32,000 nucleotides of DNA from Longivirga aurantiaca (lineage in GTDB: Bacteria > Actinomycetota > Actinomycetes > S36-B12 > CAIYMF01). Location of the stretch: the NCBI RefSeq assembly GCF_042660085.1, contig NZ_JBHSTI010000008.1, positions 1,929,876-1,961,875 on the forward strand, given 5' to 3'. The position numbers and the translations under genes were made by a program. Below the pieces are notes generated by a model, which did not search any database, was not told where the DNA came from, and worked only from the letters and a program-made list of their open reading frames with translations. Shown one piece after another: positions 1,592 to 28,902 of the stretch; positions within the stretch are counted from its first letter, which is position 1; the number at the start of each line of letters is the position of its first letter.

Positions 1592-1688
1592 GCCCCCACT
1601 CTCCCCCATCCGTCGGCGCGGCACAGTTCGGCGTGCGCCGGGACGCGCACGGCTCGGGTCCGTCCCCGGCGGCGGCGCCGGCGTCGGT

Positions 1689-1694
1689 GATACT
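1689..1694 (+). promoter_or_regulatory. candidate -10 hexamer (GATACT) placed for a leaderless transcript starting at GTG 1701
   Basis: The hexamer has A at position 2 and T at position 6 and lies exactly 6 nt upstream of the start codon. No Shine-Dalgarno sequence lies between them. Confidence 0.35.
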
Positions 1695-1700
1695 TCCTAC

Positions 1701-2312: not shown

Positions 2313-2316
2313 GAGG

Positions 2317-3225: not shown

Positions 3226-3264
3226 CCTCCTTCGTCGTCGTACCGGGTAGGTCCCTGCAGGTGG

Positions 3265-3291
3265 AACGCGAACGGGCCGGGGATACGTTCC
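3265..3291 (-). promoter_or_regulatory. candidate ECF (SigE-type) promoter upstream of htpX: GGAAC-N18-CGTT on the minus strand
   Basis: The minus strand reads GGAAC (3291->3287), 18 nt, then CGTT (3268->3265), about 40 nt upstream of the htpX start. It overlaps the hairpin at 3274-3298, so the match could be fortuitous. Confidence 0.25.
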
Positions 3292-3298
3292 CCGGCCC
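3274..3298 (-). terminator. 10-bp GC-rich hairpin between pspAA and htpX (gggccgggga acgta tccccggccc), followed on the minus strand by gTTcgcgTTcc
   Basis: The stem is exactly complementary by inspection. Its position, 30 nt after the pspAA stop, suggests a partial terminator or attenuator. There is no clean U-tract. Confidence 0.4.
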
Positions 3299-3327
3299 GC
3301 GCGACGTACATCGAACTCACGGCCGGA

Positions 3328-3603
3328 TCAGTCCGGCACGAGGCCTTCCTCGGTGAGCATGCTGCGGATGTCGTCCTCGCTCGCGTCGGCGAACGGCAGG
3401 ATCACGTCGGACTCGCGGGCCTCGTGGTCCGGCGGCCGTACGCCGTTCGTGCGGACGAAGTCGAGCAGCGCGTCGAGCGCCGGCGTGACGTCGGGCTCGG
3501 GCGACCTGAGCGCCGACTCGAGCTCGGCGTCGAGGCGGTTGAGCTCGGCAAGAGCGGACTCGGGCATCTCGTACTGGCCCTCGCCCAGGATGCGGATGAG
3601 CAC
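3328..3603 (-). CDS. PspA-associated protein PspAA
   Basis: Listed ORF 3328..3603 (GTG start, GAGAGGGG upstream). The sequence (M)LIRILGEGQYEMPESALAELNRLDAELE...ILPFADASEDDIRSMLTEEGLVPD matches the small acidic protein found immediately downstream of actinobacterial pspA. Confidence 0.75.
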   Translation of the reverse strand: MLIRILGEGQYEMPESALAELNRLDAELESALRSPEPDVTPALDALLDFVRTNGVRPPDHEARESDVILPFADASEDDIRSMLTEEGLVPD

Positions 3604-3637
3604 GTGCCTACCCCTCTCGGGACGTGACGACGATGGA

Positions 3638-4384
3638 TCAGGCCTGCGGCTTGTCGGCCGACTCGATGGCGGGAGCAGGGGCGGCGCCGCTGATCTCGCC
3701 CTTCATCGCGGCGAGCTGAGCCTCGACGTCGTTGCCGCTCGCCATGCGCTCGAGCTCGAGCGTGATGGAGTCCTTGCTGGTACCGGTCGGGTCGTCGAGC
3801 GCGCCGGAGGCAAGGAGCTCGTCGATGGCCTGGCCGCGCGCCTGCATCTGCGCGGTCTTGTCCTCGGCGCGCTGGATCGCGAGGCCGACGTCGCCGAGCT
3901 CCTCGCTGATGCCCGAGAAGGCCTCGTTGATCTTGGTCTGCGCCTCGGCGGCGGAGTACGTCGCCTTGATCGTCTCCTTCTTCGTGCGGAAGGACTCGAC
4001 CTTGGCCTGCAGGCGCTGGCTGGCCTGGATCAGCTTCTCCTCCTGGTCCTGCAGCCCGACGAGCTGGGTCTGCAGGTCCGCGATCTGGGTGGTCAGCCCG
4101 GAGCGGCGCATGAGGGCCTCGCGGGCGAGGTCCTCCCGGCCGCCGGCGAGGGCGGCCTTGGCCTGGCCCTCGAGCTTGGTGCTCTGCTGCTCGAGCTGGG
4201 TGATCTGCAGCTCGAGGCGCTTGCGGCTGGTCGCCACGTCGGCCACGCCACGGCGCACCTTCTGGAGCAGCTCGAGCTGCTTCTCGTAGGAGTAGTCCAG
4301 CGTCTCGCGCGGGTCCTCGGCCTTGTCCAGGGCCTTGTTCGCCTTGGACTTGAAGATCAGGGTGAAGCGCTGCCAGAGGCCCAT
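3638..4384 (-). CDS. pspA: PspA/IM30 family phage-shock protein A
   Basis: Listed ORF 3638..4384. It has the N-terminal amphipathic helix MGLWQRFTLIFKSKANKALDKAEDPRETLDYSYEKQLE followed by a long coiled coil. The RBS GGAAGGGA lies upstream. Confidence 0.9.
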   Translation of the reverse strand: MGLWQRFTLIFKSKANKALDKAEDPRETLDYSYEKQLELLQKVRRGVADVATSRKRLELQITQLEQQSTKLEGQAKAALAGGREDLAREALMRRSGLTTQIADLQTQLVGLQDQEEKLIQASQRLQAKVESFRTKKETIKATYSAAEAQTKINEAFSGISEELGDVGLAIQRAEDKTAQMQARGQAIDELLASGALDDPTGTSKDSITLELERMASGNDVEAQLAAMKGEISGAAPAPAIESADKPQA

Positions 4385-4433
4385 CGTGGGCGTCCCTTCC
4401 TCGAAACGACGACGTACGCGTCCTGCCGGTGGC

Positions 4434-4459
4434 GACGTGCGACGCCCCGGGGGGTTCCC
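4434..4459 (-). promoter_or_regulatory. candidate ECF (SigE-type) promoter upstream of pspA: GGGAAC-N16-CGTC on the minus strand
   Basis: The minus strand reads GGGAAC (4459->4454), 16 nt, then CGTC (4437->4434), roughly 45-50 nt upstream of the pspA ATG. The -10 element is CGTC rather than the consensus CGTT. Confidence 0.3.
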
Positions 4460-4638
4460 AACCTATCGGCCCGTGCGCGGCCTGTCCCCCGGTCGCGCCC
4501 CGGGCGCCCGCCCGGATGCGCTGAGTAGCGGCCCGGGGGATCTGAGTAGTCGCTACCCATCCCCCGGGGCGCCGATCTCCCGAGACTCGTCCACGAGCGG
4601 CCCCACCGGGGGCCACGCCAGGACCAAGGAGAACCCCG

Positions 4639-5475
4639 ATGACCAGCACCCTGCGCCGCGTGAGCGCCGCCCTGGTGACCAGCGCCGCCCTCGTGGCGGG
4701 CACCCTCGGCCTCGCCGCCCCCGCCGAGGCCGCCAGCCTCTGCGCCACCGACTGCATCTCGTACGCGCCGGTCTCGGCCGACACCAGGACCGTCCGGGCC
4801 AGCGTCGTCACCACCGGCTACGTGAACGTGACCGCCGAGGTGTGGGCGGCGGACAAGTCGGCCCGCGTCTCGTACATGGTCGACGGCCAGACCGAGACCT
4901 GGACGAGCTCCTGGACCTTCACCAGCACGGGCGGCCTGAAGCAGAACACGACCTACGCCGTGAAGCTCGTCGCCAAGGACATGCTCGGCAAGACCTGGAC
5001 CGAGTGGCGCTCGGTGCGCGTCAAGCAGCGCACCGCCACCTGGCACATCACGAAGATCAACCTCGCCGACGACAGCGACTACGCCGGGGCGGGCGAGTTC
5101 AAGGCCGGCTGGAAGGCAGGCACGACGGTCAAGTCGCCGCTCTGGAGCGGCTGGCAGTCCAAGTCCTCGGGCGGCTCCTGGACGCTCTCGTCCAGCAACG
5201 CGGCAGCCACGATCGTGCGCGTCGGCGAGACCTCGAGCCCGAAGGTCTTCCTCGAGCTCCTCGACGACGACACCGACATCGGCGACTTCGGCTGCGGCAC
5301 CGGCTTCGCGCCGAGCTGGGACTGGGGCACGAACAGCTGCGCCGACTGGGCCACCGCCGGGGCCTACGTGAACCTCCCCGAGACCTCCGCGACCACGAGC
5401 TTCACCCTGTACGTCGCCAAGACGGCGCCGGTGAAGTTCACCGTCCAGGGGTACGTCGTCACCACGGTGTCCTGA
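4639..5475 (+). CDS. secreted protein of unknown function (Sec signal peptide, four Cys, beta-rich)
   Basis: Listed ORF 4639..5475 with a strong RBS (AAGGAG, 7 nt upstream). Signal peptide is MTSTLRRVSAALVTSAALVAGTLGLAAPAEA/AS. G/C3 bias is high. I recognise no family. Confidence 0.8.
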   Translation: MTSTLRRVSAALVTSAALVAGTLGLAAPAEAASLCATDCISYAPVSADTRTVRASVVTTGYVNVTAEVWAADKSARVSYMVDGQTETWTSSWTFTSTGGLKQNTTYAVKLVAKDMLGKTWTEWRSVRVKQRTATWHITKINLADDSDYAGAGEFKAGWKAGTTVKSPLWSGWQSKSSGGSWTLSSSNAAATIVRVGETSSPKVFLELLDDDTDIGDFGCGTGFAPSWDWGTNSCADWATAGAYVNLPETSATTSFTLYVAKTAPVKFTVQGYVVTTVS

Positions 5476-5550: not shown

Positions 5551-5556
5551 TAGAGT
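5551..5556 (+). promoter_or_regulatory. candidate -10 hexamer TAGAGT placed for a leaderless transcript starting at GTG 5563
   Basis: It matches TANNNT and lies 6 nt upstream of the start codon, with no Shine-Dalgarno sequence. Confidence 0.45.
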
Positions 5557-5562
5557 GACCGC

Positions 5563-6171
5563 GTGTTCCGCCGCAAGAGCTCCGACACCGAGGTGCCGGC
5601 GCCCGCCTCCGAGACCTCGTCCGCCGCCCAGGGCAAGGGCGCGCCCACGCCTACCCGCAAGGAGGCCGAGGCCGCCCGCAAGGCGCGGCTCAACGGCACC
5701 ACGGGCAACGCCAAGGCCGACAAGAAGGCGGCCCGCGAGGCCGACCGTCAGGCCCGCTACGAGGCCCGCCTGGCCCTGCAGGCCGGCGACGAGCGCAGGC
5801 TCCCCGCCCGCGACGCCGGACCGGTGAAGTCCTATGTCCGCGACTTCGTCGACGGCCGCATCAGCGCCGGCGAGCTCTTCATCCCGGTGGCCCTCGTGGT
5901 CCTGGTGGCCGGCTTCATCCGCATCCAATGGGTGCAGGTCGTGCTGCTGTGGGCGTGGTCGGCGATGCTCCTCGGCGTCATCCTCGACTCGTTCTACCTC
6001 TGGTTCCGCCTGCGCAAGAACCTCCCGGAGCGCTTCCCCGACGAGTCGCGCCGCGGCGCACTGTCGTACGGCATCCTGCGCAGCCTGCAGATCCGCAAGC
6101 TCCGCCTGCCCCCGCCCAAGGTGCGCTACAACGGCCAGCCCGTGGTGCCCAAGGTCAAGAAGCAGAAGTAG
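5563..6171 (+). CDS. DUF3043-domain membrane protein
   Basis: Listed ORF 5563..6171. It has a Lys/Arg/Ala-rich N-terminus (GKGAPTPTRKEAEAARKARL) followed by two TM helices, the architecture typical of actinobacterial DUF3043. Confidence 0.8.
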   Translation: MFRRKSSDTEVPAPASETSSAAQGKGAPTPTRKEAEAARKARLNGTTGNAKADKKAAREADRQARYEARLALQAGDERRLPARDAGPVKSYVRDFVDGRISAGELFIPVALVVLVAGFIRIQWVQVVLLWAWSAMLLGVILDSFYLWFRLRKNLPERFPDESRRGALSYGILRSLQIRKLRLPPPKVRYNGQPVVPKVKKQK

Positions 6172-6200
6172 GCGAGATCGCGGCGGTCCGCTGCCGCGCA

Positions 6201-6206
6201 TAGGGT
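6201..6206 (+). promoter_or_regulatory. candidate -10 hexamer TAGGGT placed for a leaderless transcript starting at ATG 6213
   Basis: It matches TANNNT and lies 6 nt upstream of the ATG. Confidence 0.4.
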
Positions 6207-6212
6207 CGGGGG

Positions 6213-7211
6213 ATGCAGCACCGACGTCTTGGCCGCAGCGGCCTCAAGGTCAGCGAGATCTCCTACGGCAACTGGATCACCCACGGGTCCCAGGTCGAGG
6301 AGGACGCCGCCCTCGCCTGCGTGAACGCCGCGCTCGAGGTCGGCATCACCACCTTCGACACCGCCGACGTGTACGCCGGCACCAAGGCCGAGTCGGTGCT
6401 CGGCAAGGCCCTGGCCGGCCAGCGCCGCGAGGGCCTCGAGATCTTCACGAAGGTCTACTGGCCGACCGGCCCCGGCGTGAACGACCGCGGGCTGTCGCGC
6501 AAGCACATCCTCGAGAGCATCAACGGCTCGCTGCGCCGCCTCGGCACCGACTACGTCGACCTCTACCAGGCGCACAGGTACGACCACGAGACGCCGCTCG
6601 AGGAGACCATGCGCGCGTTCGAGGACGTCGTCCGGTCCGGCAAGGCGCTGTACGTCGGCGTCTCGGAGTGGGACGCCGAGCAGATCCGTCGCGCGGTCGA
6701 GATCGCCGACCAGATGGGCTTCGACAGGCTCGTGTCGAACCAGCCGCAGTACTCCATGCTGTGGCGCGTCATCGAGGCCGAGGTCGTGCCGACGAGCCAG
6801 GAGCTCGGGCTCGGGCAGGTCGTCTGGAGCCCCATCGCGCAGGGCGTGCTCACGGGCAAGTACCTCCCCGGTCAGCCCGCCCCCGAGGGCTCGCGCGCCA
6901 CCGACCCGACGAGCGGACACTTCACCGAGCGCCTGCGCACCGACGAGATCCTCACCCGGGTGCAGAAGCTGAAGCCGCTCGCCGAGCAGGCCGGCCTGTC
7001 GATGGCCCAGCTCGCGGTCGCGTGGGTCCTGCAGAACGACAACGTGTCCTCGGCCATCATCGGCGCGAGCCGCCCCGAGCAGGTCGTCGAGAACGTCAGG
7101 GCCGCGGGCGTCGTGCTCGAGCCCGAGCTGCTCGACGCGATCGACATCGTGCTCGGCGACGTCGTCCAGACCGACCCGCGCCTCACCGTCTCCCCCAACC
7201 CCCGGGCGTGA
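6213..7211 (+). CDS. aldo/keto reductase (Kv-beta-like subfamily)
   Basis: Listed ORF 6213..7211. Motifs: RRLGRSGLKVSEISYGNW, TFDTADVYAGTKAESVLG, LYQAHRYD, SNQPQYSML. Confidence 0.9.
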   Translation: MQHRRLGRSGLKVSEISYGNWITHGSQVEEDAALACVNAALEVGITTFDTADVYAGTKAESVLGKALAGQRREGLEIFTKVYWPTGPGVNDRGLSRKHILESINGSLRRLGTDYVDLYQAHRYDHETPLEETMRAFEDVVRSGKALYVGVSEWDAEQIRRAVEIADQMGFDRLVSNQPQYSMLWRVIEAEVVPTSQELGLGQVVWSPIAQGVLTGKYLPGQPAPEGSRATDPTSGHFTERLRTDEILTRVQKLKPLAEQAGLSMAQLAVAWVLQNDNVSSAIIGASRPEQVVENVRAAGVVLEPELLDAIDIVLGDVVQTDPRLTVSPNPRA

Positions 7212-9310: not shown

Positions 9311-10696
9311 GTGGTCACGCTCTCCCCCGGACGCGCTCCGGCCGTACGTCGCTCGCTCGCCGGCCTGCTGGCCGCCGCCACGGTCATCGCCTCCGCCGCG
9401 CTCGGCGCCGCGCCGGCCTCGGCCGCCGAACCGGTCCAGGTGGGGCTGTTCGGCACGCAGGACCCGACCTACGACGGCGTCTTCCGCCAGTCGCTCTCGC
9501 TGCTCGCCTTCGTGTCAGCAGGCGAGGAGCCCCCGGCCGAGGCGGTCGCCTGGCTGCTCGACCAGCAGTGCGCCGACGGCGGCTTCCAGGCCTACCGCTC
9601 GGACACCTCGGCGCCGTGCACCGAGTCCGACCCGGTGAACTACGTCGGCGAGGACTCCAACTCCACCGCGCTGGCCTCGGCAGCGCTCACCGTGCTCGGT
9701 GAGCTCGACGCGGCGGACGCGGCCCTCGGCTGGCTCGAGTCCGCCCAGAACGCCGACGGCGGCTTCCCTTACTTCCTCGGCGGCACCTCCGACGTGAACT
9801 CCACCGCGATCGCGCTGCTCGCGACCAACGCCGTCGGCCTGTCGCCCAGCCAGGTCACCAACGGCTCGGCGTCGGCCGCCGACTACCTCACCTCCCTGCA
9901 GGTCGGCTGCCCCGGCGCGGCCACCGACGAGGACGGCGGGTTCGCGTACGCCGACTTCTCGGCCGGCACCGCGAACGACTCCGCCACTGTGCAGGCGGCG
10001 CTCGCGATCACGGGCGCTGCGCTGCCGTTCGTGGCCGACCCGCCGTCGCTCGACATCCCGCGCGCCGACTGCCCGGCACCCGCCGCGGCCCCGGCCGCCA
10101 CCACCGAGGCACCGGCCGCTGCGGCCGCTGCGGTCGACCTGACGCCGGCCGAGCTCGCGGGCGGCTACATCGCGCGCACGCTCACGGCGTACGACAACGC
10201 GATCCCCGAGCTCGACTTCGGCACCGGCCTGCGCAAGCCCGGCACGGTGTCGGCCGGGGACACGGCCTGGGCCGTGCTCGCGCTCTCGGCCATCGGCGTC
10301 GGCGGCGACCAGCGCGACGCCGCCCTCGACGTGCTGCTCGGCCAGGTCGGCGGCGGGTCCGCCCGCAAGGCCGCGGCCGCCTCGGTCTCGGACGAGGCAC
10401 CGGGCCTGCTCGCCCTCGCGGCGCTGGCCGTGGTGTCCGCCGACGGCAGCCAGGCCACCGTCGAGGGCCTGGTGGCCCGGGTCGGCGCGACGATGCGCAC
10501 CGCACCGGCGTCGTCCAGCCCGACGCCGTCGCCGACCGGCAGCACCGAGCCGACCCCGTCACCCACCGACGCCGGTGGCCTCGCCCCCTCGGGTGCCTCG
10601 CCGCTCACGCCGGGCCTCGCCGGGTCGGGTGCTCTGCTGGTCCTGCTCGGTGCCGCAGCGCTGCTGGTGTCACGCCGCCAGGGGTCGCACGCATGA
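9311..10696 (+). CDS. secreted prenyltransferase/squalene-oxidase-repeat (alpha/alpha-toroid) protein with a C-terminal membrane or cell-wall anchor
   Basis: Listed ORF 9278..10696, trimmed to GTG 9311 (RBS GAAAGGA 7 nt upstream). Signal peptide ends ...ASAALGAAPASA/AE. Repeated QxxDGGF-type motifs are present (QQCADGGFQ, AQNADGGFPYF, TDEDGGFAY). The C-terminus reads LAPSG, then a hydrophobic stretch, then SRRQ. Confidence 0.85.
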   Translation: MVTLSPGRAPAVRRSLAGLLAAATVIASAALGAAPASAAEPVQVGLFGTQDPTYDGVFRQSLSLLAFVSAGEEPPAEAVAWLLDQQCADGGFQAYRSDTSAPCTESDPVNYVGEDSNSTALASAALTVLGELDAADAALGWLESAQNADGGFPYFLGGTSDVNSTAIALLATNAVGLSPSQVTNGSASAADYLTSLQVGCPGAATDEDGGFAYADFSAGTANDSATVQAALAITGAALPFVADPPSLDIPRADCPAPAAAPAATTEAPAAAAAAVDLTPAELAGGYIARTLTAYDNAIPELDFGTGLRKPGTVSAGDTAWAVLALSAIGVGGDQRDAALDVLLGQVGGGSARKAAAASVSDEAPGLLALAALAVVSADGSQATVEGLVARVGATMRTAPASSSPTPSPTGSTEPTPSPTDAGGLAPSGASPLTPGLAGSGALLVLLGAAALLVSRRQGSHA

Positions 10697-11643
10697 CCGC
10701 CGCACGCCGGGGCACGGCGACCGCCCGCGCGGTCGCCGTCCTCGGCGTGCTCGGATCCACCCTGCTCGCCCTGCTCGTGGCCGCTGCCGTGACGGCACCG
10801 GCCGCCGAGGCGGCGTCGTACCGGTACTGGACCTACTGGTGGGGCCAGCCCGGAGCGACGTCGTGGACCTTCGCCCAGCTCGGTCCGGCCAGCGACCGGC
10901 CGAAGGACGGCGCCGTGATCGGGTGGCGCTTCGCCGTCACCACCGAGAGCGGCGGCAAGAAGTCGCCCCGCGCCGCGCTGCCGTTCGCATCGCTGTGCCC
11001 GCAGCTCACCTCGGCGCCCGACGGCCAGAAGCGCGTGGCGGTGGTGGTCGACTACGGCTCGACGTCGGACGCGCCCCCCGGCGAGCAACCGCCCGGCGGA
11101 GGAACCGTGCGCGTCGAGTGCGTGACCGCGGCGTCGAACGCCAACGCGGTCACCGTGCTGACGACGGCCGGGGTGTCGCTGCGCGTCGGCGGCAACGGGC
11201 TGGTCTGCGGCATCGACGGCTACCCGCGCACCGAGTGCGCGGCGGTCGTCGCCGACCCGACGCCGACCCCCACGCGCACGAGCGCCAAGCCCACGCCGAA
11301 GCCGACCACCGCGCGTCCGACGAGCTCGTCTGCCGAGCCGGCGACCACGGCCGAGGTGCCGGCGGCTCCTGCAGGTGGCACCCCGACCACGCCCGCGGGC
11401 GAGACGACGACCCCGGGCGCGTCGGCGTCGAGCGCTTCGGCGTCGAGCACGAGCGCCGCCCCCACCGCGCAGGAGACGGCCGACGGATCGGAGGCACCGC
11501 TGCCGGCGAGCTCCGGTGCTCCGGTGGCGTCCGGCACCGAGGCCCCCGCGGGCGGCAGCCCGCTCGGACCGATCGCGGGTGCAGCCCTGGTCGCGGTCGT
11601 CGGCGCCGGCGCCTGGTGGACCGCGCGCGGGAGGCGGTCGTGA
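10693..11643 (+). CDS. secreted SCO2322-like protein with a DUF4430-like N-terminal domain, Pro/Thr/Ala-rich linker and C-terminal TM anchor
   Basis: Listed ORF 10693..11643, with an ATGA overlap on the upstream stop. Signal peptide ends ...VTAPAAEA/AS. The motif YRYWTYWWGQPGATSWTFAQLGPASDRPKDGAVIGWRF resembles the DUF4430 (transcobalamin beta-domain-like) signature. The tail is IAGAALVAVVGAGAWWTARGRRS. Confidence 0.8.
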   Translation: MTAARRGTATARAVAVLGVLGSTLLALLVAAAVTAPAAEAASYRYWTYWWGQPGATSWTFAQLGPASDRPKDGAVIGWRFAVTTESGGKKSPRAALPFASLCPQLTSAPDGQKRVAVVVDYGSTSDAPPGEQPPGGGTVRVECVTAASNANAVTVLTTAGVSLRVGGNGLVCGIDGYPRTECAAVVADPTPTPTRTSAKPTPKPTTARPTSSSAEPATTAEVPAAPAGGTPTTPAGETTTPGASASSASASSTSAAPTAQETADGSEAPLPASSGAPVASGTEAPAGGSPLGPIAGAALVAVVGAGAWWTARGRRS

Positions 11644-12797
11644 CGCGTCCCGCCCACCGCCTCGGCGGCAGCGCCCTGCCGCGCTGGACCCATCCGGTCG
11701 CCTGGTGGGTCTGGGCGCTCGGCCTCGCGACCGCCGTCAGCCGCACGACCAACCCGCTCCTGCTCGCGCTCGTCGTCGCCGTCGCCGGCTGGGTGGTGGC
11801 GCGGCGGCGTCCGGACGCTCCCTGGGCACGGTCGTACGCCGTGTTCCTGCGCCTCGGCCTGCTCGTGATCGCGATCCGCGTCGCGTTCACCGTGGTGCTC
11901 GGCTCGGGCTCCGGCACCACGGTGCTGGTGACGCTGCCCGAGATCCCGCTGCCCGACTGGTTCGCCGGCGTCAGCCTCGGCGGCCCCGTCACCCTCGAGG
12001 AGCTGCTGGCCGCCGTGTACCAGGGGATGGTGCTGGCCGCGCTGCTCGCGTGCGTCGGGGCGGCGAACTCGCTCGCCTCTCCCGCGCGCCTGCTCGCCTC
12101 GGTGCCGGCCGCGCTCTACGAGGTGGGCGTCGCCGTCGTCGTCGCGATGACGTTCGCACCGCAGCTCGTGCAGGACGTCGGCCGCGTCCGCACGGCGCGC
12201 CGGCTGCGCGGCCGACCCGACCGAGGTGTGCGTGCGCTCGCCGGCTCGGTGATGCCGGTGCTCGAGGGCGCGCTCGAGCGCGCGGTCGACCTGGCCGCAG
12301 CCATGGACTCGCGCGGCTACGGCCGCACCGGGACGCAGTCGCCGGCGCTGCGCCGCACGTCGGGCGCGCTGCTGCTCCTCGGCCTGGTCGGCATGTGCCT
12401 CGGCGTCTACGCGCTGCTCGACACGGGCGCAGCCGGCACCCTCGGCCTTCCGCTGCTGGTGCTCGGCGTCGCGGCGGGGACGGTCGGCGTGCTGCTCGCC
12501 GGACGCCGCAGCATCCGCACCCGCTACCGGCCCGACCCGTGGGCGCTGCCCGAGTGGATCGTGGCCGCCACCGGCGTGATCGTCGCTGCCGTCCTCGTCG
12601 CCGTCTCGATCACCGACCCGATGGTGCTCGTCGGGCCGGTCTCGCCGCCCGCGTGGCCCGCCCTCCCCCTCGTGCCGGTCGCCGCGATCCTCCTGGCCGC
12701 GCTCCCGGGCCTCGTCACACCGCCGCCGCCCGGCATGATGGCGATCGCGTCGTTGCCGGTCCGCACGGACCGCCAGGCGGAGGGGGTGGCCGCGTGA
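11640..12797 (+). CDS. ecfT: ECF transporter transmembrane (T) component, CbiQ/EcfT family
   Basis: In-frame GTG at 11640 (GTGA overlap) within listed ORF 10575..12797. It is a polytopic membrane protein with the coupling-helix motifs TARRLRGR and AMDSRGYG. Confidence 0.9.
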   Translation: MTRPAHRLGGSALPRWTHPVAWWVWALGLATAVSRTTNPLLLALVVAVAGWVVARRRPDAPWARSYAVFLRLGLLVIAIRVAFTVVLGSGSGTTVLVTLPEIPLPDWFAGVSLGGPVTLEELLAAVYQGMVLAALLACVGAANSLASPARLLASVPAALYEVGVAVVVAMTFAPQLVQDVGRVRTARRLRGRPDRGVRALAGSVMPVLEGALERAVDLAAAMDSRGYGRTGTQSPALRRTSGALLLLGLVGMCLGVYALLDTGAAGTLGLPLLVLGVAAGTVGVLLAGRRSIRTRYRPDPWALPEWIVAATGVIVAAVLVAVSITDPMVLVGPVSPPAWPALPLVPVAAILLAALPGLVTPPPPGMMAIASLPVRTDRQAEGVAA

Positions 12798-14425
12798 TCC
12801 GCTTCGAGGACGTCACCGTCACCTACGACGGCGCCTCCGCTCCGGTGCTGAGCAACGTCGACCTGCACATCCCCGAGGGGGAGCTGGTCCTGGTCGTCGG
12901 CCGCACCGGCACCGGGAAGTCGACGCTGCTGCGCTGCGTCAACGGGCTCGTGCCGCACTTCACCGGCGGCACCCTGCGCGGACGCGTCACCGTCGCCGGA
13001 CGCGACACGCGCACCCACCCGCCTCGGGAGCTCGCCGACGTCGTCGGCGTCGTACCGCAGGACCCGCTCTCGGGGTTCGTCACGGACATCGTCGAGGACG
13101 AGCTCGCCTACGGCATGGAGTCGATCGGCCTCGCACCCGACGTCATGCGCCGTCGCGTCGAGGAGACCCTCGACCTGCTGGGCCTCAACGACCTGCGCAA
13201 CCGGGCGCTGCGCTCGCTGTCCGGCGGCCAGCGCCAGCGCGTGGCCATCGGCGCGGTGCTCACCATGCACCCGCGCGTGCTGGTGCTCGACGAGCCGACG
13301 TCCGCGCTCGATCCCGGTGCGGCCGAAGAGGTGCTGGCTGCGCTGCAGCGGCTCGTGCACGACCTCGGCGTCACCGTGCTGCTGGCCGAGCACCGGCTCG
13401 AGCGCGTGGTGCAGTACGCCGACCGCGTCGTCGTCGTGCCCGGCGCGGGCGAGCCGCTCGTGGTCGGGACGCCGGCCGAGGTCATGGCGACCGCACCCGT
13501 GGCACCGCCGGTGGTCGAGCTCGGCCGCCTCGCGGGCTGGTCTCCGCTGCCGCTCTCGGTGCGCGACGCCCGCCGCGCCGCCGGACCGCTCCGCGAGCGC
13601 CTCGAGCCGCTCGTCGCCGAGGCGGCCCTGCGCTCGCGGCAGTCGCTGCACGTCGTGTCCGGCGACCCGGCGGTGTCGGCTCGCGACGTCGTCGTACGCC
13701 ACGGTGCGATCGCCGCGCTGCGCGGCGTCACCGTCGCCGCCGACCGTGGCGAGATCGTGGCGGTGATGGGGCGCAACGGCGCGGGCAAGTCGACGCTGCT
13801 CTCGACGTTCGTCGGCCTGCACACCCCCACCAGCGGCAGCGCGACCGTCGGCGGATCGGTCGCCTCCACGCTGCGCGGGCGCGACCTCGTGAGCCGCGTC
13901 GGGCTCGTGCCGCAGGAGCCCACCGACGTGCTGGTCGCCGACCGTGTGGCCGACGAGTGCACGTCGGCCGACCGCGACGCCGGTGCGGCGCCCGGGACCG
14001 CGCGCGCCCTGCTCGACCGGCTCGCGCCCGGCGTGCACGACGACACGCACCCCCGCGACCTGAGCGAGGGCCAGCGCCTCGCGCTGGCGCTCGCGGTCGT
14101 GCTCGCGGCGCAGCCCCCGGTGCTGCTGCTCGACGAGCCCACCCGCGGCCTCGACTACCCGGCCAAGCAGAGGCTCGTCGCCACGCTGCGCGAGCTCGCC
14201 GCGGCCGGGCACTGCGTGATCCTCGCGACGCACGACGTCGAGCTCGCCGCCGAGGTGGCCACGCGCGTCGTCGTCCTCGCCGAGGGCGAGGTGGTCGCAG
14301 ACGGCCCCGCCACCGAGGTCGTGGTCGGGTCGCCCATGTTCGCGCCGCAGGTGAGCAAGGTGCTGTCGCCGCAGCCGTGGCTCACCGTCGCCGAGGTCGC
14401 AGCCGCCCTCGTGGTGGCGTCGTGA
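12794..14425 (+). CDS. ECF transporter ATPase, fused tandem A/A' ABC domains
   Basis: In-frame GTG at 12794 (GTGA overlap) within listed ORF 11375..14425. It has two full ABC sets: GRTGTGKST / LSGGQRQR / LVLDEPTS and GRNGAGKST / LSEGQRLA / LLLDEPTR. Confidence 0.9.
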   Translation: MIRFEDVTVTYDGASAPVLSNVDLHIPEGELVLVVGRTGTGKSTLLRCVNGLVPHFTGGTLRGRVTVAGRDTRTHPPRELADVVGVVPQDPLSGFVTDIVEDELAYGMESIGLAPDVMRRRVEETLDLLGLNDLRNRALRSLSGGQRQRVAIGAVLTMHPRVLVLDEPTSALDPGAAEEVLAALQRLVHDLGVTVLLAEHRLERVVQYADRVVVVPGAGEPLVVGTPAEVMATAPVAPPVVELGRLAGWSPLPLSVRDARRAAGPLRERLEPLVAEAALRSRQSLHVVSGDPAVSARDVVVRHGAIAALRGVTVAADRGEIVAVMGRNGAGKSTLLSTFVGLHTPTSGSATVGGSVASTLRGRDLVSRVGLVPQEPTDVLVADRVADECTSADRDAGAAPGTARALLDRLAPGVHDDTHPRDLSEGQRLALALAVVLAAQPPVLLLDEPTRGLDYPAKQRLVATLRELAAAGHCVILATHDVELAAEVATRVVVLAEGEVVADGPATEVVVGSPMFAPQVSKVLSPQPWLTVAEVAAALVVAS

Positions 14426-15282
14426 CGGCCACCGCGCTCCCGCCCCGCGACGACGTCCGCGTGGTCCATGTCGGCAGACCGGCTGCCGTCCGCATCGGCC
14501 GCCGCTCGCTCGCCGCGATGGTCCTGGCCAGCGCGGTCGGCATCGTCGCCTTCGCCTGGCCGCTGATGGCACCCGCCGGCTCGTCGATCGTGGCGCATGC
14601 CGCCGACGCCCCCTGGCTCTTCGCCGCGATGCTTCCGCTCGTGCTCGCGGTCGTCCTCGCCGAGGTCGCCGACGGCGGCCTGGACGCCAAGGGCATCGCG
14701 CTGCTCGGGGTGCTGTCGGCCGCCGCTGCCGCGCTCCGGCCGTTCGGCAGCGGGCACGCCGGCTTCGAGCCGATGTGGATCGTGCTGGTGCTCGGCGGCC
14801 GCGCGCTCGGCCCCGGCTTCGGCTTCTGCCTCGGCGCCGTGGGGATGTTCGCCTCCGCGATGGTGACGGGCGGCGTCGGGCCATGGCTGCCGTTCCAGAT
14901 GGTCGGCGCGGCCTGGGTGGGACTCGGCGCGGGCCTGCTGCCGCGGGCCGGCGGACGGCGCGAGCTCGGGCTGCTCGCGGCGTACGCCTTCGTCGCCGCG
15001 ATCGCCTACGGCTTCCTGCTCAACCTGTGGTTCTGGCCGTTCATCACCGCCGACCAGGGGTTCCCGGCCGGGCTGTCGTACGTGCCGGGCGGCACGTTCA
15101 CCGAGAACCTGCAGCACTGGATGCTGTTCAACCTCACCACGTCGCTCGGCTTCGACATCCCGCGCGCGGTGCTGACCGTGGTGCTCGTGCTGGTGGCCGG
15201 TCGGCCGGTGCTGACCGCCCTGCGGCGGGCGTCGAGGCGCGCGGCGTTCGAGGTGCCGGTGCGGTTCGAGGACGTGCGCTGA
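14422..15282 (+). CDS. ECF transporter substrate-specific (S) component, predicted corrinoid-specific
   Basis: In-frame GTG at 14422 (GTGA overlap) within listed ORF 13957..15282. It is a small Gly/Ala-rich integral membrane protein with about six TM helices. Its position after the T and A components, under a B12 riboswitch, supports the call. Confidence 0.75.
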
Positions 15283-16691
15283 TGCGGGCGCTGGTCCTCG
15301 GCACCGGATCGGCGGACGGCTGGCCGAACCCGTTCTGCGAGTGCGCCTCCTGCACCTGGGCGCGCACGAGCGGATCGGTGCGCACGACCACCTCGGTGCT
15401 CGTCGACGACGTGCTCCTGCTCGACTTCGGCCCGGACACCCCTCGCCAGGCCTCGCGCGCCGGACGCAGCCTCGCCGGCCTCGCCGCCGTCCTCGTGACC
15501 CACGCGCACCACGACCACCTCGACCCGGCCGCACTGCTCGCCCGGTCGTGGGCGGGGCCTGCGTCGTCGCTCCGCGTGGTGGGCCCGCCGTCGGTCGTCG
15601 ACGCGTGCGAGCACTGGATCGGCCCGCACGACACCGTGGCGCTCACCGCCGTCGCGCCGGGCGACGTCCTCGACCTCGACGGCTACGCGGTCCGCGTGCT
15701 CGCTGCGGCGCACGACGTCGGCGCCGACGCCCTCACCCGCGACGCCGTCCTCTACGACGTGACCGCGCCCGACGGGTCGCGGCTGCTCTACGCGACCGAC
15801 ACCGGGCCCCTGCCCGACGCGACCGTCGCGGCGCTGGCCGGCTCGGCGCTCGACCTGCTGCTGGTCGAGCAGACCTTCGGCACCTACCTCGACCACGGCA
15901 CCGGCCACCTCGACCTCGCGACGCTTCCCGGCGAGCTGCGCCGGCTGCGCGAGGTGGGCGCCCTCACCGACGCGACCGACGTCGTGGCCGTGCACCTCAG
16001 CCACCACAACCCGCCGGGGCCCGAGCTCGCGCGGGTGCTCGCGCCGTGGGGCGTGCGGACCGTCGACGACCTGACCGAGATCGAGGTGGGTGCGGTGCCG
16101 GACGCAGCGACGGCGATGCTCCCGCGGCGCACCCTGCTGCTCGGGGGTGCCCGCTCGGGCAAGTCGCACGAGGCCGAGCGGATGTTCGCCGCGACGGCCG
16201 ACGTCGAGTACGTCGCCACCGGCGGATCGCGCGACGGCGACGACGAGTGGGCCGCGCGCGTGGCGCTGCACCGGGAGCGCCGCCCGGCGTCGTGGACGAC
16301 CACGGAGACGCTCGACGTCGCGAAGCTCCTGCTCTCCCCGGGCCCGCCCGTGCTGCTGGACTGCCTCTCGCTCTGGCTCGCGGGCGTCCTCGACGCCTCG
16401 GGCGTCTGGGCGTCCGAGCCGGGCACGGCCGGGCGCGCGGCCGCGCTGGCCGAGGTGGAGCGCGAGGTCGCGGCGCTGGTCGACGCGGTCCGACGTACGA
16501 CGCGCACGCTCGTGCTCGTGTCGAACGAGGTCGGCAGCGGCGTCGTGCCCGAGCACGAGTCGGGCCGCCTCTACCGCGACGCGCTCGGACGCCTCAACGC
16601 CCGCGTCGCCTCGGAGTGCGACGCTGTGTCCCTCGTCGTCGCAGGGACCGTCCTGCCCCTCAAGCCCGGAAGCAGCGCAGCAGCACCGTGA
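15282..16691 (+). CDS. cobU: fusion protein: N-terminal PhnP/PqqB-like MBL-fold hydrolase and C-terminal adenosylcobinamide kinase/adenosylcobinamide-phosphate guanylyltransferase (CobU/CobP)
   Basis: ATG at 15282 overlaps the upstream TGA (TGATG), inside listed ORF 14775..16691. The N-terminal half has [23 protein letters not shown] and THAHHDHLD. The C-terminal half has the P-loop [15 protein letters not shown] and CobU-like [11 protein letters not shown] and [12 protein letters not shown]. Confidence 0.85.
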
Positions 16692-17770
16692 CCGTCGACC
16701 TCGACGCCCTCGTCGCACGCATCGACCTGCCCGACGACGACGCACGCGCCGCCGCGGCCGAGCGGCAGTCGCGGCTGACCAAGCCGACGGGCGCGCTCGG
16801 GCGGCTCGAGGAGCTCTCGCTCTGGCTCTGCGCGGCGCAGGGCGTGTGCCCGCCTCGACCGCTCGAGCGCGTGCGCGTCATCGTGCTCGCGGGCGACCAC
16901 GGGATCGCGCGCACCGCGGGCACCAGCGCCTACCCGCCCGAGGTCACCGCCCAGATGGTGCTCAACTTCCTCGCCGGCGGCGCGGCCGTGAACGTGCTCG
17001 CGCGGCAGAACGGCGCCACCGTCCGAGTCGTCGACGTCGCGGTCGACGTCGACTGGACCGAGCTCGGCGCATCGGTGCCGGACGACGTCGTGCGCGACAA
17101 GGTGCGCAGGGGCAGCGGCTCGATCGACCGCGAGGACGCGATGACGCGCGAGGAGGCCGAGGCGGCCTTCGCGCTCGGCGTGCGCATCGCCGACGACGAG
17201 GTCGATGCGGGCGCGGATCTCCTCATCCCCGGCGACATGGGCATCGGCAACACCACTCCGGCGGCGGTGATCACCGGGCTCTACACGAACCAGGACGCGG
17301 CGTCGGTCGTCGGTCGCGGCACCGGCATCGACGACGCGACGTGGATGCGCAAGACCGCGGCGGTGCGCGACGCCATGCGCCGCGGGCGGGCGGTGAAGGG
17401 CGACCCGATGGCGCTGCTGACCACCGTCGGGGGCGCCGACATCGCAGCCATGACGGGGCTGCTGCTGGGCGCGGCGGCACGGCGTACGCCGGTGCTGCTC
17501 GACGGCGTGGTGTCGTGCGCGGCGGCCCTCGTGGCGCAGCGGGTCTCGTTCCGCGCGCGCGAGTGGTGGCTCGCCGGGCACCGGTCGACCGAGCCGTCGG
17601 CGGCCGCGGCGCTCGACCGGCTGCGGCTCGAGCCGATCGTCGACTACGGCCTGCGCCTCGGCGAGGGAACCGGCGCGTTGGTGGCGCTGCCCGTCCTCGT
17701 CGCGGCGGGCGCGACCCTGCGCGAGATGGCGACCTTCGACGAGGCCGGCGTCTCGGACCGGGAGGCCTGA
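16688..17770 (+). CDS. cobT: nicotinate-nucleotide--dimethylbenzimidazole phosphoribosyltransferase
   Basis: In-frame GTG at 16688 (GTGA overlap) within listed ORF 15341..17770. Motifs: [50 protein letters not shown]. Confidence 0.92.
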
Positions 17771-18579
17771 TGCCCGACTCCGTGCGCCTCGCCCTCGGCA
17801 CCTTCACGATCCTGCGCGTCCCGCCGCCGCGGGTGGTCGACCGGCGCACCGCCCGCGACGCGATGCTGCTCGCACCGCTCGTCGGCGCGCTGCTGGCGCT
17901 GGTCGGCGCGGTGGTGATCCTCGCCGTACGGCTCTCGCCGCTCGGCCACCGCACGCACATCGTGGTCACGCTGGTCGCGGCGACGCTGGCGATCATCACG
18001 CTCGCGGTCCTCACCCGCGGCCTGCACCTCGACGGTCTCGCCGACACCGCCGACGGCCTGGGGGTGAAGGGCGACGACGACGGCGCCCGCGAGCGGCGAC
18101 TCGCCGTGATGCGCCAGCCCGACATCGGGGCGTTCGGCGCGATCACCCTGGTGCTGGTGCTCGTCGTGCAGATCCTGGCGCTCACCGCGTGCGACCTCGC
18201 GGGCCGCGGGACCGTGAGCCTCGTGCTCGCTTGCGTGGTCGCCCGGCTCGCGATCGTGTGGGCGTGCACGCCGCTCGCCCGCTCGGCCCGGCCCGACGGG
18301 CTCGGCGCGGCGGTGGCGGGCTCCGTGCCGTACGCCGCCGCGGCGCTGCTCACGGCCGCCGTCCTGGCCGTCGCCGTCCTGCTCGGCCTCGGCGACGACG
18401 ACGGCGGTCGCCGGCTCGCCGCCGCCCTCGTGATCGGCACTGCGGTCGGCCTGCTCGCCGGCTACCTCGTCGTCCGCCGGGCCCAGGCCCGCTTCGGCGG
18501 CATCACCGGCGACGTCCTCGGCGCCACCGCCGAGCTCACCTTCACCGCCGTGCTCCTCTCGCTCGCCCTCCTCCCCTGA
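17770..18579 (+). CDS. cobS: adenosylcobinamide-GDP ribazoletransferase (cobalamin synthase)
   Basis: ATG at 17770 overlaps the cobT TGA, inside listed ORF 16090..18579. It is a polytopic membrane protein with the LHLDGLADTADGL motif and GGITGDVLGA near the C-terminus. Confidence 0.9.
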   Translation: MPDSVRLALGTFTILRVPPPRVVDRRTARDAMLLAPLVGALLALVGAVVILAVRLSPLGHRTHIVVTLVAATLAIITLAVLTRGLHLDGLADTADGLGVKGDDDGARERRLAVMRQPDIGAFGAITLVLVLVVQILALTACDLAGRGTVSLVLACVVARLAIVWACTPLARSARPDGLGAAVAGSVPYAAAALLTAAVLAVAVLLGLGDDDGGRRLAAALVIGTAVGLLAGYLVVRRAQARFGGITGDVLGATAELTFTAVLLSLALLP

Positions 18580-18734: not shown

Positions 18735-19007
18735 ATGACTGCGACCACCGACGACCTGCGCGAGTTCGAGCTCGAGTTCGGCGCCGAGCAGCCTGCTGCT
18801 CCGGCCGCCCCCGCCGTCCCGGCGTACCTGTCCTCCGCTGCCCGCCGTCGGGCCGCCGACGCCGAGACCGGCGACGGCTTCTTCCGCGGCATGTACGCCC
18901 TGATCGTGGCCGGCATGGTGGTCTCGATGGCCACCTTCGCGTTCGTGGCCTACGACAACTCGGTCGCGCAGACCGGCGGCCAGACCTCGGTCAGCGCCAC
19001 GCCGTAG
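18735..19007 (+). CDS. small hypothetical membrane protein (90 aa, one TM helix)
   Basis: Internal ATG of listed ORF 18675..19007. Almost every codon ends in G/C. A TM segment GMYALIVAGMVVSMATFAFVAY is present. I recognise no family. Confidence 0.55.
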   Translation: MTATTDDLREFELEFGAEQPAAPAAPAVPAYLSSAARRRAADAETGDGFFRGMYALIVAGMVVSMATFAFVAYDNSVAQTGGQTSVSATP

Positions 19008-27421: not shown

Positions 27422-28774
27422 TCAGCCCGCACGGTCCTCGCGGCCGCGCACCTCGGCGATCCGCCAGCCGTCGCCGTCGAGGGCCGGCATCGGCGTGAGC
27501 GTCACCGTCCACCAGGCCGCGGTGCGCTCGGGCACGTGGGTCGTCGTACCGCCCTGCACCACGTCGTAGGCCGTACGCCGGTCGCGCACCGCCAGCACGA
27601 CGCGGTCGGCGTCGGCGCGCAGCAGCCTCGCCTCCTCCAGCACCACCTCGCCGCCCGAGAGCCTGGCGCCCGACCCCGCGAGCCGCGCCAGGAGCGCGGC
27701 GTCGCGCGCCCAGGCAGCACCCGCCGGGTCGACCCAGCGCGCGAGAGCGTCACGGTCGCCGGAGGCGAGCGCCTGCCGACGGCCGGAGTCGAGGGCTGCG
27801 AGCACCGCGGCCCAGTCGGTGGCCACGGGCTCCGCGGGGGGCGGAGCCACCGGTGTGGCGGATACCTCGGGCACCACGGCCGGCGCAGGTACGGCCCCGG
27901 GGGTCGGCTCAGAGGCCACCGCGCCGACCGCCGTCACGGCCCGGACCGCGCCGAGCCCGACCAGCAGCACGAACGCCACCGAGGCCACCGTGCGGACCGA
28001 GAGCCTCGCCGGCGGCTTGTCCTGAGCCCGGCGTCGCGACCCGGGCGGCGGCTGCTCGGCCGGTGGAGCGGCGGCCCGGGCCGAGCGCGGTCGGGGTGCC
28101 GCCCCAGTGGGTCGCGGTGCGGCCGGTGCGGGAGGGGCGGCCGGAGCCGACGGCTGCTGCCACAGCGCGTCGAGCAGGCTCTCCGGGCGGCCGCAGGAGC
28201 GCAGCAGGTCGAGCAGCTGGTCAGCGTCGGGCCGCAGCACGGGATCGGGGTCGGCGGCGCGCAGGGCGGCGAGGACGAGCGGTCCAGGAGCTCCCCCGCG
28301 GCCGAGCAGGAGGCGCACGAGGTCGCCGACCGCGGCGACGTCGGACTCCGGCGTCGGCCCGTCGAGCCTTCCGGGCACGGCGCGCCAGGCGAGGCCGGAC
28401 CCCGCGAGCAGCACCGACCCATTAGGGGCCACGAGCACCTGCTGCGCGCTCACCCCGCCGTGCGCGAGGCCCGCGGCATGCAGCGCCACGAGCGCCTCCG
28501 CCACCGCGGTCGCGGCCGCGAGCACGTGCCCGGCGCGCAGCGGGCCTCCCCGGCGTACGGCGTCGAGCGAGACCGCGCCGTCGGGCACGCGGTGGACGAG
28601 CACGACGCCGTCGGGGGACGACGACCAGCGCACGAGCGGCGCGAGCGTAGGGGCCCGTACCTCGCTCAGCCGGCCGAGGTCGCGCGCGAGCAAGGGGACG
28701 GCGTCGGGGTCGGCGGCGCCGGGGGCGGTGCGCTCGACGGTCGGCAGGGGCTCGGGCTCGGTGCGGCGCGTCAT
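27422..28774 (-). CDS. single-pass membrane protein: truncated catalytically dead kinase-like domain, Pro/Ala linker, TM helix, extracytoplasmic NTF2/SnoaL-like domain
   Basis: Listed ORF 27422..28921, trimmed to ATG 28774 because the upstream 49 codons are Arg/Cys/Pro-rich. Kinase C-lobe remnants are LHAAGLAHGGVSAQQVLV (HRD replaced by HGG) and LLAGSGLA (DFG replaced by GSG). I see no Gly-rich loop or VAIK lysine. The TM segment is VASVAFVLLVGLGAV. Confidence 0.65.
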   Translation of the reverse strand: MTRRTEPEPLPTVERTAPGAADPDAVPLLARDLGRLSEVRAPTLAPLVRWSSSPDGVVLVHRVPDGAVSLDAVRRGGPLRAGHVLAAATAVAEALVALHAAGLAHGGVSAQQVLVAPNGSVLLAGSGLAWRAVPGRLDGPTPESDVAAVGDLVRLLLGRGGAPGPLVLAALRAADPDPVLRPDADQLLDLLRSCGRPESLLDALWQQPSAPAAPPAPAAPRPTGAAPRPRSARAAAPPAEQPPPGSRRRAQDKPPARLSVRTVASVAFVLLVGLGAVRAVTAVGAVASEPTPGAVPAPAVVPEVSATPVAPPPAEPVATDWAAVLAALDSGRRQALASGDRDALARWVDPAGAAWARDAALLARLAGSGARLSGGEVVLEEARLLRADADRVVLAVRDRRTAYDVVQGGTTTHVPERTAAWWTVTLTPMPALDGDGWRIAEVRGREDRAG

Positions 28775-28902
28775 GCGGCCACGGTGCCCGCCCGGCGCCG
28801 CACCCCGCTCGCGTCGTCCACAGGCCCGGGCCGGGGGAAAGGGACGCGCCCGTCTCGATGCGCATCTGCGGGGGTGGACGTGCGTGCCCCTGCACGAACC
28901 GG

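Follow-up and report, generated by a model that had tools for sequence, protein, structure and literature searches.

We analysed a 32,000-nt stretch of the Longivirga aurantiaca genome (assembly GCF_042660085.1, contig NZ_JBHSTI010000008.1, positions 1,929,876 to 1,961,875; hereafter the window), in which a single gene joins a metallo-beta-lactamase (MBL) domain to CobU, an enzyme of B12 nucleotide-loop assembly. This gene (hereafter MBL-CobU) is the sixth of eight co-directional genes spanning 9311-18579 that follow a cobalamin riboswitch and encode two surface proteins, the T, fused A/A' and S components of an energy-coupling factor (ECF) importer, MBL-CobU, CobT and CobS (Table 1). Every junction between these genes overlaps by 1 or 4 nt, indicating translational coupling; the ATG of MBL-CobU shares one base with the TGA of gene 5 (TGATG), and its own stop overlaps the CobT start as GTGA. 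The riboswitch fell below the gathering threshold in a default Rfam scan and was recovered, at full length, in a focused local search. The same riboswitch precedes the orthologous first gene in all three other ECF-type loci that were scanned (L003, 34.7 bits; L006, 33.8 bits; L004, 31.2 bits). Riboswitch, importer components and MBL-CobU thus lie in one unit, and because the uptake and loop-assembly genes stand behind a cobalamin riboswitch, the predicted eight-gene operon is very probably repressed by B12. A consensus scan for promoters and terminators over the operon, which carries no information at 75% G+C, found none.

Table 1. Positions in the window of the operon, its riboswitch and the parts of MBL-CobU.
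Feature	Position	Strand	Evidence or remarks
Cobalamin riboswitch aptamer RF00174	9017..9150	+	31.0 bits vs gathering 31.5, E 4.7e-6, model 1-189
Gene 1, secreted alpha/alpha-toroid SCO2321-family protein	9311..10696	+	SQHop_cyclase, Prenyltrans (Pfam)
Gene 2, SCO2322-family surface protein	10693..11643	+	SCO2322_fam 150 bits vs cut-off 85
Gene 3, ECF T component, CbiQ-like	11640..12797	+	Pfam CbiQ E 1.8e-7; 4-nt overlaps on both sides
Gene 4, fused double ECF ATPase (A/A')	12794..14425	+	two ABC_tran; ECF_ATPase_1 308 bits, ECF_ATPase_2 300 bits
Gene 5, ECF S component	14422..15282	+	Pfam ECF_trnsprt PF12822 E 1.5e-9; not CbiM
Gene 6, MBL-CobU fusion, 469 aa	15282..16691	+	Pfam, NCBIfam, homologues, AlphaFold2, Foldseek
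MBL-fold domain, residues 1-268, predicted PhnP-like binuclear metallo-hydrolase	15282..16085	+	Lactamase_B_2, PDB, Foldseek
Cys cluster C19-x-C21-x-x-C24, presumed structural Zn site completed by H241	15336..15353	+	
HxHxDH metal motif (H74 A H76 H D78 H79)	15501..15518	+	
Inter-domain linker, residues 269-282	16086..16127	+	lowest internal pLDDT block (68), not conserved
CobU domain, residues 283-460	16128..16661	+	P-loop 16143-16166; conserved His330 16269-16271
Gene 7, CobT (nicotinate mononucleotide:5,6-dimethylbenzimidazole (DMB) phosphoribosyltransferase)	16688..17770	+	DBI_PRT 430 bits; TIGR03160 412 vs cut-off 319
Gene 8, CobS (adenosylcobinamide-GDP ribazoletransferase)	17770..18579	+	Pfam CobS 148.6 bits; TGATG overlap with CobT

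The preliminary description of this DNA, made by reading the letters, had placed an N-terminal MBL domain and a complete C-terminal CobU on one open reading frame (ORF). Pfam agreed, matching Lactamase_B_2 to residues 46-216 (E 6e-16) and CobU to residues 284-459 (E 4e-49, profile positions 1-167 of 168) of the 1410-nt frame (469 codons plus TGA). The strings it had quoted are also present, namely a 22-residue Cys-cluster string (residues 7-28), HAHHDH (74-79) and GARSGKS (289-295). Three results rule out a chance ORF in DNA of ~75% G+C: the G+C content of third codon positions (GC3) is 0.96 in the MBL-CobU frame, which is the sole coding frame across the gene; the same two-domain architecture recurs over 90-100% of its length in more than 120 clusters at 90% identity; and an AlphaFold2 model built with 52 homologues is confident (pLDDT 92.4, pTM 0.89).

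Conservation was read from an alignment of 52 fusion homologues at 53-81% identity. Residues C19, C21, C24, H74, H76, D78, H79, H144, D173, H209, D211, H238 and H241 were invariant in all 52, and the three cysteines were invariant in all 78 loci, including those of Streptomycetaceae in which the domain is truncated (see below). In alignment with Escherichia coli PhnP, the cysteines fall on C21, C23 and C26, which bind Zn in PhnP, the HxHxDH motifs coincide, and H209 occupies the column of His200, the general acid of PhnP; the other aligned PhnP residues are metal ligands. H241 retains the HxxH spacing of PhnP, and a Cys3(+His) zinc site is predicted. The binuclear ligand set (H74, H76, D78, H79, H144, D173 and H238) and H209 together make up the PhnP-type residues. 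Since this complete two-metal set is invariant, it is under strict selection, and judged by these residues the N-terminal domain is apparently a catalytically competent two-metal phosphodiesterase.

The preliminary description had assigned the domain to the PhnP/PqqB subgroup. This held insofar as the nearest relatives by PDB sequence and Foldseek searches are PhnP, PqqB and Fpd, with Foldseek E-values of 1e-15 to 1e-17 for the MBL part (RNase Z also superposes), and failed insofar as the domain scores below the equivalog cut-offs of both PhnP and PqqB. Among PDB sequences, E. coli PhnP (3g1p) matches best (E 4e-9, query residues 5-217), with a Foldseek E-value of 2.6e-16, a target-normalised TM-score of 0.75-0.78, and the CxCxxC cluster, HxHxDH motif, later His/Asp/His ligands and His200 equivalent described above. 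However, the two are only ~24-26% identical, and the PhnP equivalog TIGR03307 gives 42.2 bits (E 5.7e-11) against a cut-off of 272.25; stand-alone MBL relatives score 28-65 bits. PhnP is a 5-phospho-alpha-D-ribosyl 1,2-cyclic phosphate phosphodiesterase, and its context is the carbon-phosphorus lyase (phn) operon, whereas MBL-CobU is a fusion inside a B12 operon, and phn genes are absent from the window and from 83 related loci. PqqB (PDB 4z7r, 6e13), reported as an iron hydroxylase, shares the Cys-cluster MBL subgroup and is the top Foldseek match (E 9.6e-17), but its equivalog TIGR02108 gives only 15.1 bits against a cut-off of 245, its PDB sequence E-value is 0.46, the MBL domain keeps the full binuclear hydrolase ligand set, and no pqq genes lie in the window. 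Fpd of Koribacter versatilis (PDB 6b9v) has the best target-normalised TM-score (0.79-0.80, root-mean-square deviation 3.2-3.5), yet its sequence match is confined to query residues 4-80 (E 1.5e-6). Unlike the CobU-fused domain, Fpd is stand-alone, diphosphate-cleaving and flavin-linked, and no flavin genes were found near MBL-CobU. Genes for the synthesis and transport of flavin adenine dinucleotide (FAD) reportedly cluster with that for Fpd, according to Beaudoin et al. in 2018; if so, such linkage to genes for a nucleotide-containing cofactor may serve as a conceptual precedent. By its title, as cited in PMC7599082, the same work describes Fpd as a PhnP-family FAD-photoproduct diphosphatase (Beaudoin et al., 2018).

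The C-terminal domain, on the sequence evidence, is a canonical CobU, that is, adenosylcobinamide kinase / adenosylcobinamide-phosphate guanylyltransferase. It matches Pfam PF02283 over the full family length with 166.9 bits (cut-off 27), while NCBIfam PRK05800 (NF004469) gives 156.7 bits, just below its cut-off of 161. It is 32-38% identical to Salmonella CobU (1cbu, 1c9k), with a target-normalised TM-score of 0.80-0.87. The P-loop (G288-G289-x-R291-x-G293-K294-S295) and H330 are invariant in the 52 homologues, and K294 and H330 in all fused loci; the guanylylated His is His46 in the Salmonella enzyme. What sets the protein apart from a canonical CobU, which is a stand-alone protein of ~180 aa, is the 270-aa MBL domain (or a truncated one of ~210 aa) that most of the actinomycetes sampled carry N-terminally.

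To place the MBL domain among its relatives we drew on a HMMER search run exhaustively against 1.84 billion cluster representatives, which returned 89 proteins below E 1e-30 in two clades. Clade (a) carries a 19-residue motif and is mostly CobU-fused; clade (b), 33-39% identical and found in Chloroflexi and Firmicutes, is made up of stand-alone proteins of 270-280 aa. Both clades fall short of every curated NCBIfam family, and NCBIfam release 20 has no model for the MBL-CobU fusion. With the MBL domain alone as query, nearly all close relatives were still CobU-fused. Our best reading is that the domain represents a branch of the PhnP-like MBL group that is restricted to actinomycetes, had gone undescribed and was recruited into B12 loop assembly. 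Public records name these proteins only 'bifunctional adenosylcobinamide kinase/guanylyltransferase' or 'MBL fold metallo-hydrolase'. A search of full-text literature, with most subscription journals outside its coverage, returned no description of the fusion or of the SCO2321-25 cassette, and the fusion goes unmentioned in the CbiR paper (PMC7733943), a 2021 B12 review and an MBL-superfamily survey.

How often the fusion occurs was answered by a scan of one genome per GTDB species, which found at least 593 confirmed relatives among 600 matching stretches and, together with the clusters above, shows the fusion to be common and widespread in Actinomycetes; the loci analysed here are the best 80. 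By tblastn, these share a backbone of PspA, DUF3043, (aldo-keto reductase), an optional ECF cassette, MBL-CobU, CobT, CobS, GcvT, PepA, Lpd and SucB. The Psp-DUF3043-aldo-keto reductase neighbourhood is syntenic in nearly all of the best 80 loci and marks an ancestral cobU-cobT-cobS site by gcvT-pepA-lpd-sucB. Outside Streptomycetaceae, every catalytic residue is kept in 26 of 26 loci, among them Nanopelagicales-labelled metagenome-assembled genomes (MAGs), Nocardioidaceae, Cumulibacter, Acidothermaceae, Frankia, Prescottella equi and Mycolicibacter. Two loci (L012 and L026) have MBL-CobU followed directly by CobS, with no CobT match.

In Streptomycetaceae, by contrast, the MBL domain is truncated to ~210 aa in all 51 loci, each from a different species, and lacks ~60 residues together with D78, H79, H144, D173 and H209, while keeping the Cys cluster, H74, H76, H238 and H241. 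Mean pairwise identity is 76.9% for this shortened domain, against 78.8% for the attached CobU (intact forms, 52.1% against 54.6%). As it is as conserved as CobU, the truncated domain is a selected, presumably zinc-stabilised, non-catalytic module, and it looks like a dead enzyme domain kept for a structural purpose. One example lies at 9989-11191 of L049, and the Streptomycetaceae loci fall within L023-L079. In Streptomyces a methyltransferase, an HtrA-like protease and a lysyl-phosphatidylglycerol synthase, none of them B12-related, are encoded in the gap separating CobT from CobS and upstream of MBL-CobU. Streptacidiphilus has a plain CobU at the ancestral site. A Kribbella locus (L082, 5610-11478) has the ECF cassette with its S component, a plain CobU of 181 aa and CobS, and neither MBL domain nor CobT; CbiZ, CbiR and CobC were looked for there as replacements, and none was present. 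In Kitasatospora (L083, 9638-10555), CobU is preceded by a 124-residue N-terminal extension, a putative MBL remnant. Loss of the domain in Kribbella and its gutting in Streptomycetaceae mark it as accessory, which fits remodelling better than an obligatory step.

The converse also occurs, as four intact MBL copies, in Dietzia, Blastococcus, Propionicicella and Aeromicrobium, stand alone and keep the full catalytic set. In a neighbour-joining tree they nest inside the fused clade and are thus secondary fissions. The Dietzia copy (Candidatus Dietzia intestinipullorum, L071 6611-10825; MBL gene 9998-10825) overlaps the stop codon of the ATPase gene of a Peripla_BP_2-type ABC importer, whose lipoprotein receptor most resembles heme binders and a B12-binding protein (5ysc, E 4e-20; E. 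coli BtuF, E 3e-7). The Blastococcus copy (L041, 9989-10825) lies between DUF3043 and aldo-keto reductase, at the ancestral site. In Aeromicrobium sp. Root495 (L078, 9377-14521), a 161-aa P-loop kinase-like protein (AAA_33/SKI), not detectably CobU, precedes the stand-alone MBL, and two ABC proteins of exporter type (ABC_membrane plus ABC_tran) come after it. Two further candidates, P0121 and P0125, were rejected as true stand-alone MBLs, being frameshifted long-read assemblies with CobU fragments directly downstream.

Intact domains were also found next to, and within, importer genes. An ECF S-component gene lies directly upstream in six of 16 fused-intact loci on longer contigs and three of four on short contigs, and in none of the 51 truncated loci. 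A single in-frame ORF, P0070 (763 aa; L003 10001-12292), spans S component, MBL and CobU on a metagenomic contig of 3.37 Mb. N-terminally truncated fragments with the same S-MBL junction occur in three other 50% clusters (P0228, P0255 and P0233), where a sequencing artefact is possible. At loci without the ECF cassette we found no riboswitch at either threshold in L049, P. equi (L007), Mycolicibacter (L013), Dietzia (L071), Aeromicrobium (L078) or Blastococcus (L041), and none at the gathering threshold in Propionicicella (L074).

We propose, at a probability of roughly 0.37 and in agreement with the first of two options in the preliminary description, that the MBL domain, as a binuclear phosphodiesterase, cuts open the nucleotide loop of corrinoids after their import and supplies CobU with the product; in this role it would be a functional analogue of CbiR with a different fold. 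When B12 is scarce, the riboswitch would permit expression of the operon, and the two surface proteins and the ECF importer would take up corrinoids. The MBL domain would then hydrolyse the loop phosphodiester of complete cobamides carrying an unsuitable lower ligand, yielding cobinamide-phosphate (a CbiR-type cut) or cobinamide. The fused CobU would guanylylate this product, phosphorylating it first if needed, and CobT and CobS would rebuild the loop with the preferred base. We infer the MBL substrate and the bond cleaved from several lines of comparison. Characterised MBL relatives are diesterases or diphosphatases. The loop phosphodiester, on the alpha face of a ribose, is the type of bond that the PhnP and Fpd relatives cleave, and this likeness, with the precedent of CbiR, would favour loop cleavage. 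Circumstantial support comes from the S-MBL-CobU fusions, the riboswitch-ECF operon, the coupling to an importer in Dietzia and the decay of the site in Streptomycetaceae. In a fuller picture, the domain would add to CbiZ and CbiR a third class of cobamide-remodelling enzyme that is structurally unrelated to both; chained physically to the reactions on either side, it would work in an import-strip-rebuild assembly line for B12 in actinomycetes and survive in Streptomycetaceae, its activity lost, only as a zinc-stabilised scaffold. This picture is more tentative still, and we put it forward as a possibility that may well prove wrong.

The precedent itself came from Akkermansia muciniphila, where CbiR was likewise an ORF of unknown function in a cobU/cobT/cobS locus; it cleaves cobamides to cobinamide-phosphate and alpha-ribazole, and the loop is rebuilt on the former by CobU, CobT and CobS (PMC7733943). 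The likeness is a functional analogy only, a hydrolase encoded among salvage genes. CbiR belongs to the AP endonuclease 2 superfamily, with a predicted TIM barrel (PMC7733943), whereas the domain here has an MBL fold and no AP_endonuc_2 match, and CbiR has not been reported fused to CobU. The activity of CbiR was also shown experimentally, whereas that of the MBL domain is predicted. CbiZ (adenosylcobinamide amidohydrolase) and the histidine phosphatase CobC have no sequence or fold relationship to the MBL domain; CbiZ is a candidate for the step it might parallel, CobC for the step it might replace. His_Phos_1, CbiZ and AP_endonuc_2 gave no match in MBL-CobU or in the scanned ORFs of the 32-kb window, so that the absence of cobC that the preliminary description had noted for the operon extends to the whole window.

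Several observations weigh against loop cleavage. Ten of the 16 fused-intact loci on longer contigs have no adjoining importer, including those of P. equi, Mycolicibacter and Frankia, and the scanned neighbourhoods in P. equi, Mycolicibacter and Propionicicella contain no B12 genes. Four genomic contexts of clade (b) held nothing B12-related and had nothing in common. Blastococcus keeps an intact MBL though CobU, CobT and CobS are gone from the site, a hint that the domain may have a role outside strict loop assembly. Streptomycetaceae are one clade, so the contrast between ECF-linked intact and ECF-free truncated loci rests on essentially one evolutionary event. The cargo of the importers is a further point. 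We infer that corrinoids, not cobalt, are the cargo of the ECF importer; cobalt ECF systems, too, stand under B12 riboswitches, and this one could import cobalt, though its S component is not CbiM. The Dietzia importer, which has no detectable riboswitch, may carry heme.

Two other hydrolytic roles within loop assembly deserve weighing. The domain might be the phosphatase of the last step, the second option of the preliminary description, replacing CobC as a non-homologous enzyme and acting on adenosylcobalamin-5'-phosphate or alpha-ribazole-5'-phosphate. This would supply the sole loop-assembly step without a gene in the operon or in the scanned window, it suits a fusion that is spread very widely over the actinomycetes, occurring also at loci with no importer beside them and in lineages that we take to be de novo B12 producers, and the substrate of PhnP likewise has a 5-phosphate on an alpha-configured ribose. 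Yet the close relatives PhnP and Fpd hydrolyse phosphodiesters or diphosphates, not monoesters, and fusions to an S component are easier to explain if the domain acts directly after uptake than if it acts last. An obligatory step is also hard to reconcile with what has been lost without a substitute at the locus, the catalytic site in 51 Streptomycetaceae species and the domain itself in Kribbella and others; this argument is softened by the fact that CobC itself is dispensable in Salmonella. On balance we regard a CobC-like role as unlikely. We give slightly less weight to an Fpd-like nucleotide-diphosphatase acting on a diphosphate-linked loop intermediate or by-product. It might, for example, split alpha-DMB-adenine dinucleotide (alpha-DAD), which CobT makes from nicotinamide adenine dinucleotide (NAD+), into alpha-ribazole-phosphate and adenosine monophosphate, or clear off-pathway or damaged cobinamide-GDP (GDP, guanosine diphosphate). 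Fpd (6b9v) gives the highest target-normalised TM-score, 0.80, and to judge from the title of the work describing it, PhnP-family enzymes can be diphosphatases; moreover, the product of CobU is GDP-linked, and the fusion would bring the hydrolase close to a diphosphate compound. For the domain to break down what CobU has just made would, however, be futile, the Fpd sequence similarity covers only the first 80 residues, and a role on alpha-DAD predicts linkage to CobT, whereas L012 and L026 have MBL-CobU-CobS without it. A pyrophosphatase for alpha-DAD is said to have been postulated by Maggio-Hall and Escalante-Semerena in 2003, and to our knowledge it has never been identified.

The remaining explanations detach the domain from loop chemistry, and we consider both improbable. 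If it served mainly as a structural or docking module for CobU, built on the Cys3-His zinc site and possibly organising an oligomer or a membrane-associated complex, hydrolysis would be incidental. The 51 Streptomycetaceae species show that a selected non-catalytic role exists, since a domain without five catalytic residues keeps C19, C21, C24, H238 and H241 and is conserved like CobU, and the modelled pTM of 0.89 suggests fixed packing of the two domains. A scaffold alone would nonetheless not need the catalytic residues that are invariant across orders outside Streptomycetaceae, nor would it explain why the stand-alone copies of Dietzia, Blastococcus, Propionicicella and Aeromicrobium, which have no CobU attached, retain the full set. 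Alternatively, the domain might have a function unrelated to B12, for instance as a general cyclic-nucleotide, ribosyl-cyclic-phosphate or RNA-end phosphodiesterase that became linked to CobU when genes at a conserved chromosomal site fused in an ancestor. Intact copies occur where CobU, CobT and CobS are absent (Blastococcus L041) or in unrelated neighbourhoods (Propionicicella, Aeromicrobium), the sister clade (b) has no B12 context, and Joint Genome Institute annotation calls relatives 'phosphoribosyl 1,2-cyclic phosphate phosphodiesterase'. Against this, the PhnP equivalog score is far below threshold with no phn operon present, the fusion is kept across many families, nearly all close MBL relatives are CobU-fused, the stand-alone copies are secondary splits within the fused clade, and extra fusions to a component of a B12-regulated importer have arisen repeatedly.

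Nutrient exchange in soils, waters and host-associated communities depends in part on which B12-like molecules a bacterium can use and interconvert. The only enzymes named with cobamide-remodelling activity are CbiZ, CbiR and the CobS of Vibrio cholerae (PMC7733943). A very large proportion of the sampled actinomycetes have the MBL domain attached to CobU, including relatives of pathogens (P. equi, Mycolicibacter), Frankia and the Nanopelagicales-labelled MAGs. If it does cleave cobamides, genome-based predictions of B12 salvage and remodelling would change for a whole phylum, a PhnP-like fold would provide a clear case of convergent recruitment, and the SCO2321-SCO2325-type ECF cassette would be a corrinoid uptake system. 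Should it turn out to be a diphosphatase, or the phosphatase for which no gene was found, a gap in the pathway would be closed all the same. In Streptomycetaceae, the inactive yet conserved version offers a natural experiment that separates catalytic from structural roles.

The first two genes of the operon encode surface proteins that may be extracellular corrinoid-capture proteins. The product of gene 1, a candidate extracellular substrate-capture protein, has, to judge by its translation, a signal peptide and a C-terminal transmembrane segment, and an LAETG-type C-terminal anchor/sortase signal; it scores 197 bits against NCBIfam SCO2321_fam (cut-off 300) and 29.6 bits against strep_LAETG (cut-off 30). 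The toroid fold recalls the alpha-domain of transcobalamin. PDB sequence searches with the toroid protein and the S component returned no meaningful match. Gene 2, which overlaps gene 1 by 4 nt, encodes a signal peptide, a Pro/Thr/Ser-rich linker and a C-terminal transmembrane anchor.

Beyond the operon, a small ORF of ~90 aa follows CobS (18735-19007, + strand); its C-terminal segment is hydrophobic, and neither Pfam nor NCBIfam gives a match. The position after CobS in L002 and L003 is likewise taken by ORFs of 84-137 aa with no family match. Two further ORFs, at 4546-5475 (+) and 27422-28786 (-), have coding-like GC3 values of 0.95 and 0.91 and no Pfam match; the second has a weaker codon-position contrast and may be a non-gene. 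Upstream of the operon, at 995-4462 and 5554-7211, the window encodes PspAB, an M48 peptidase, PspAA and PspA, followed by DUF3043 and an aldo-keto reductase.

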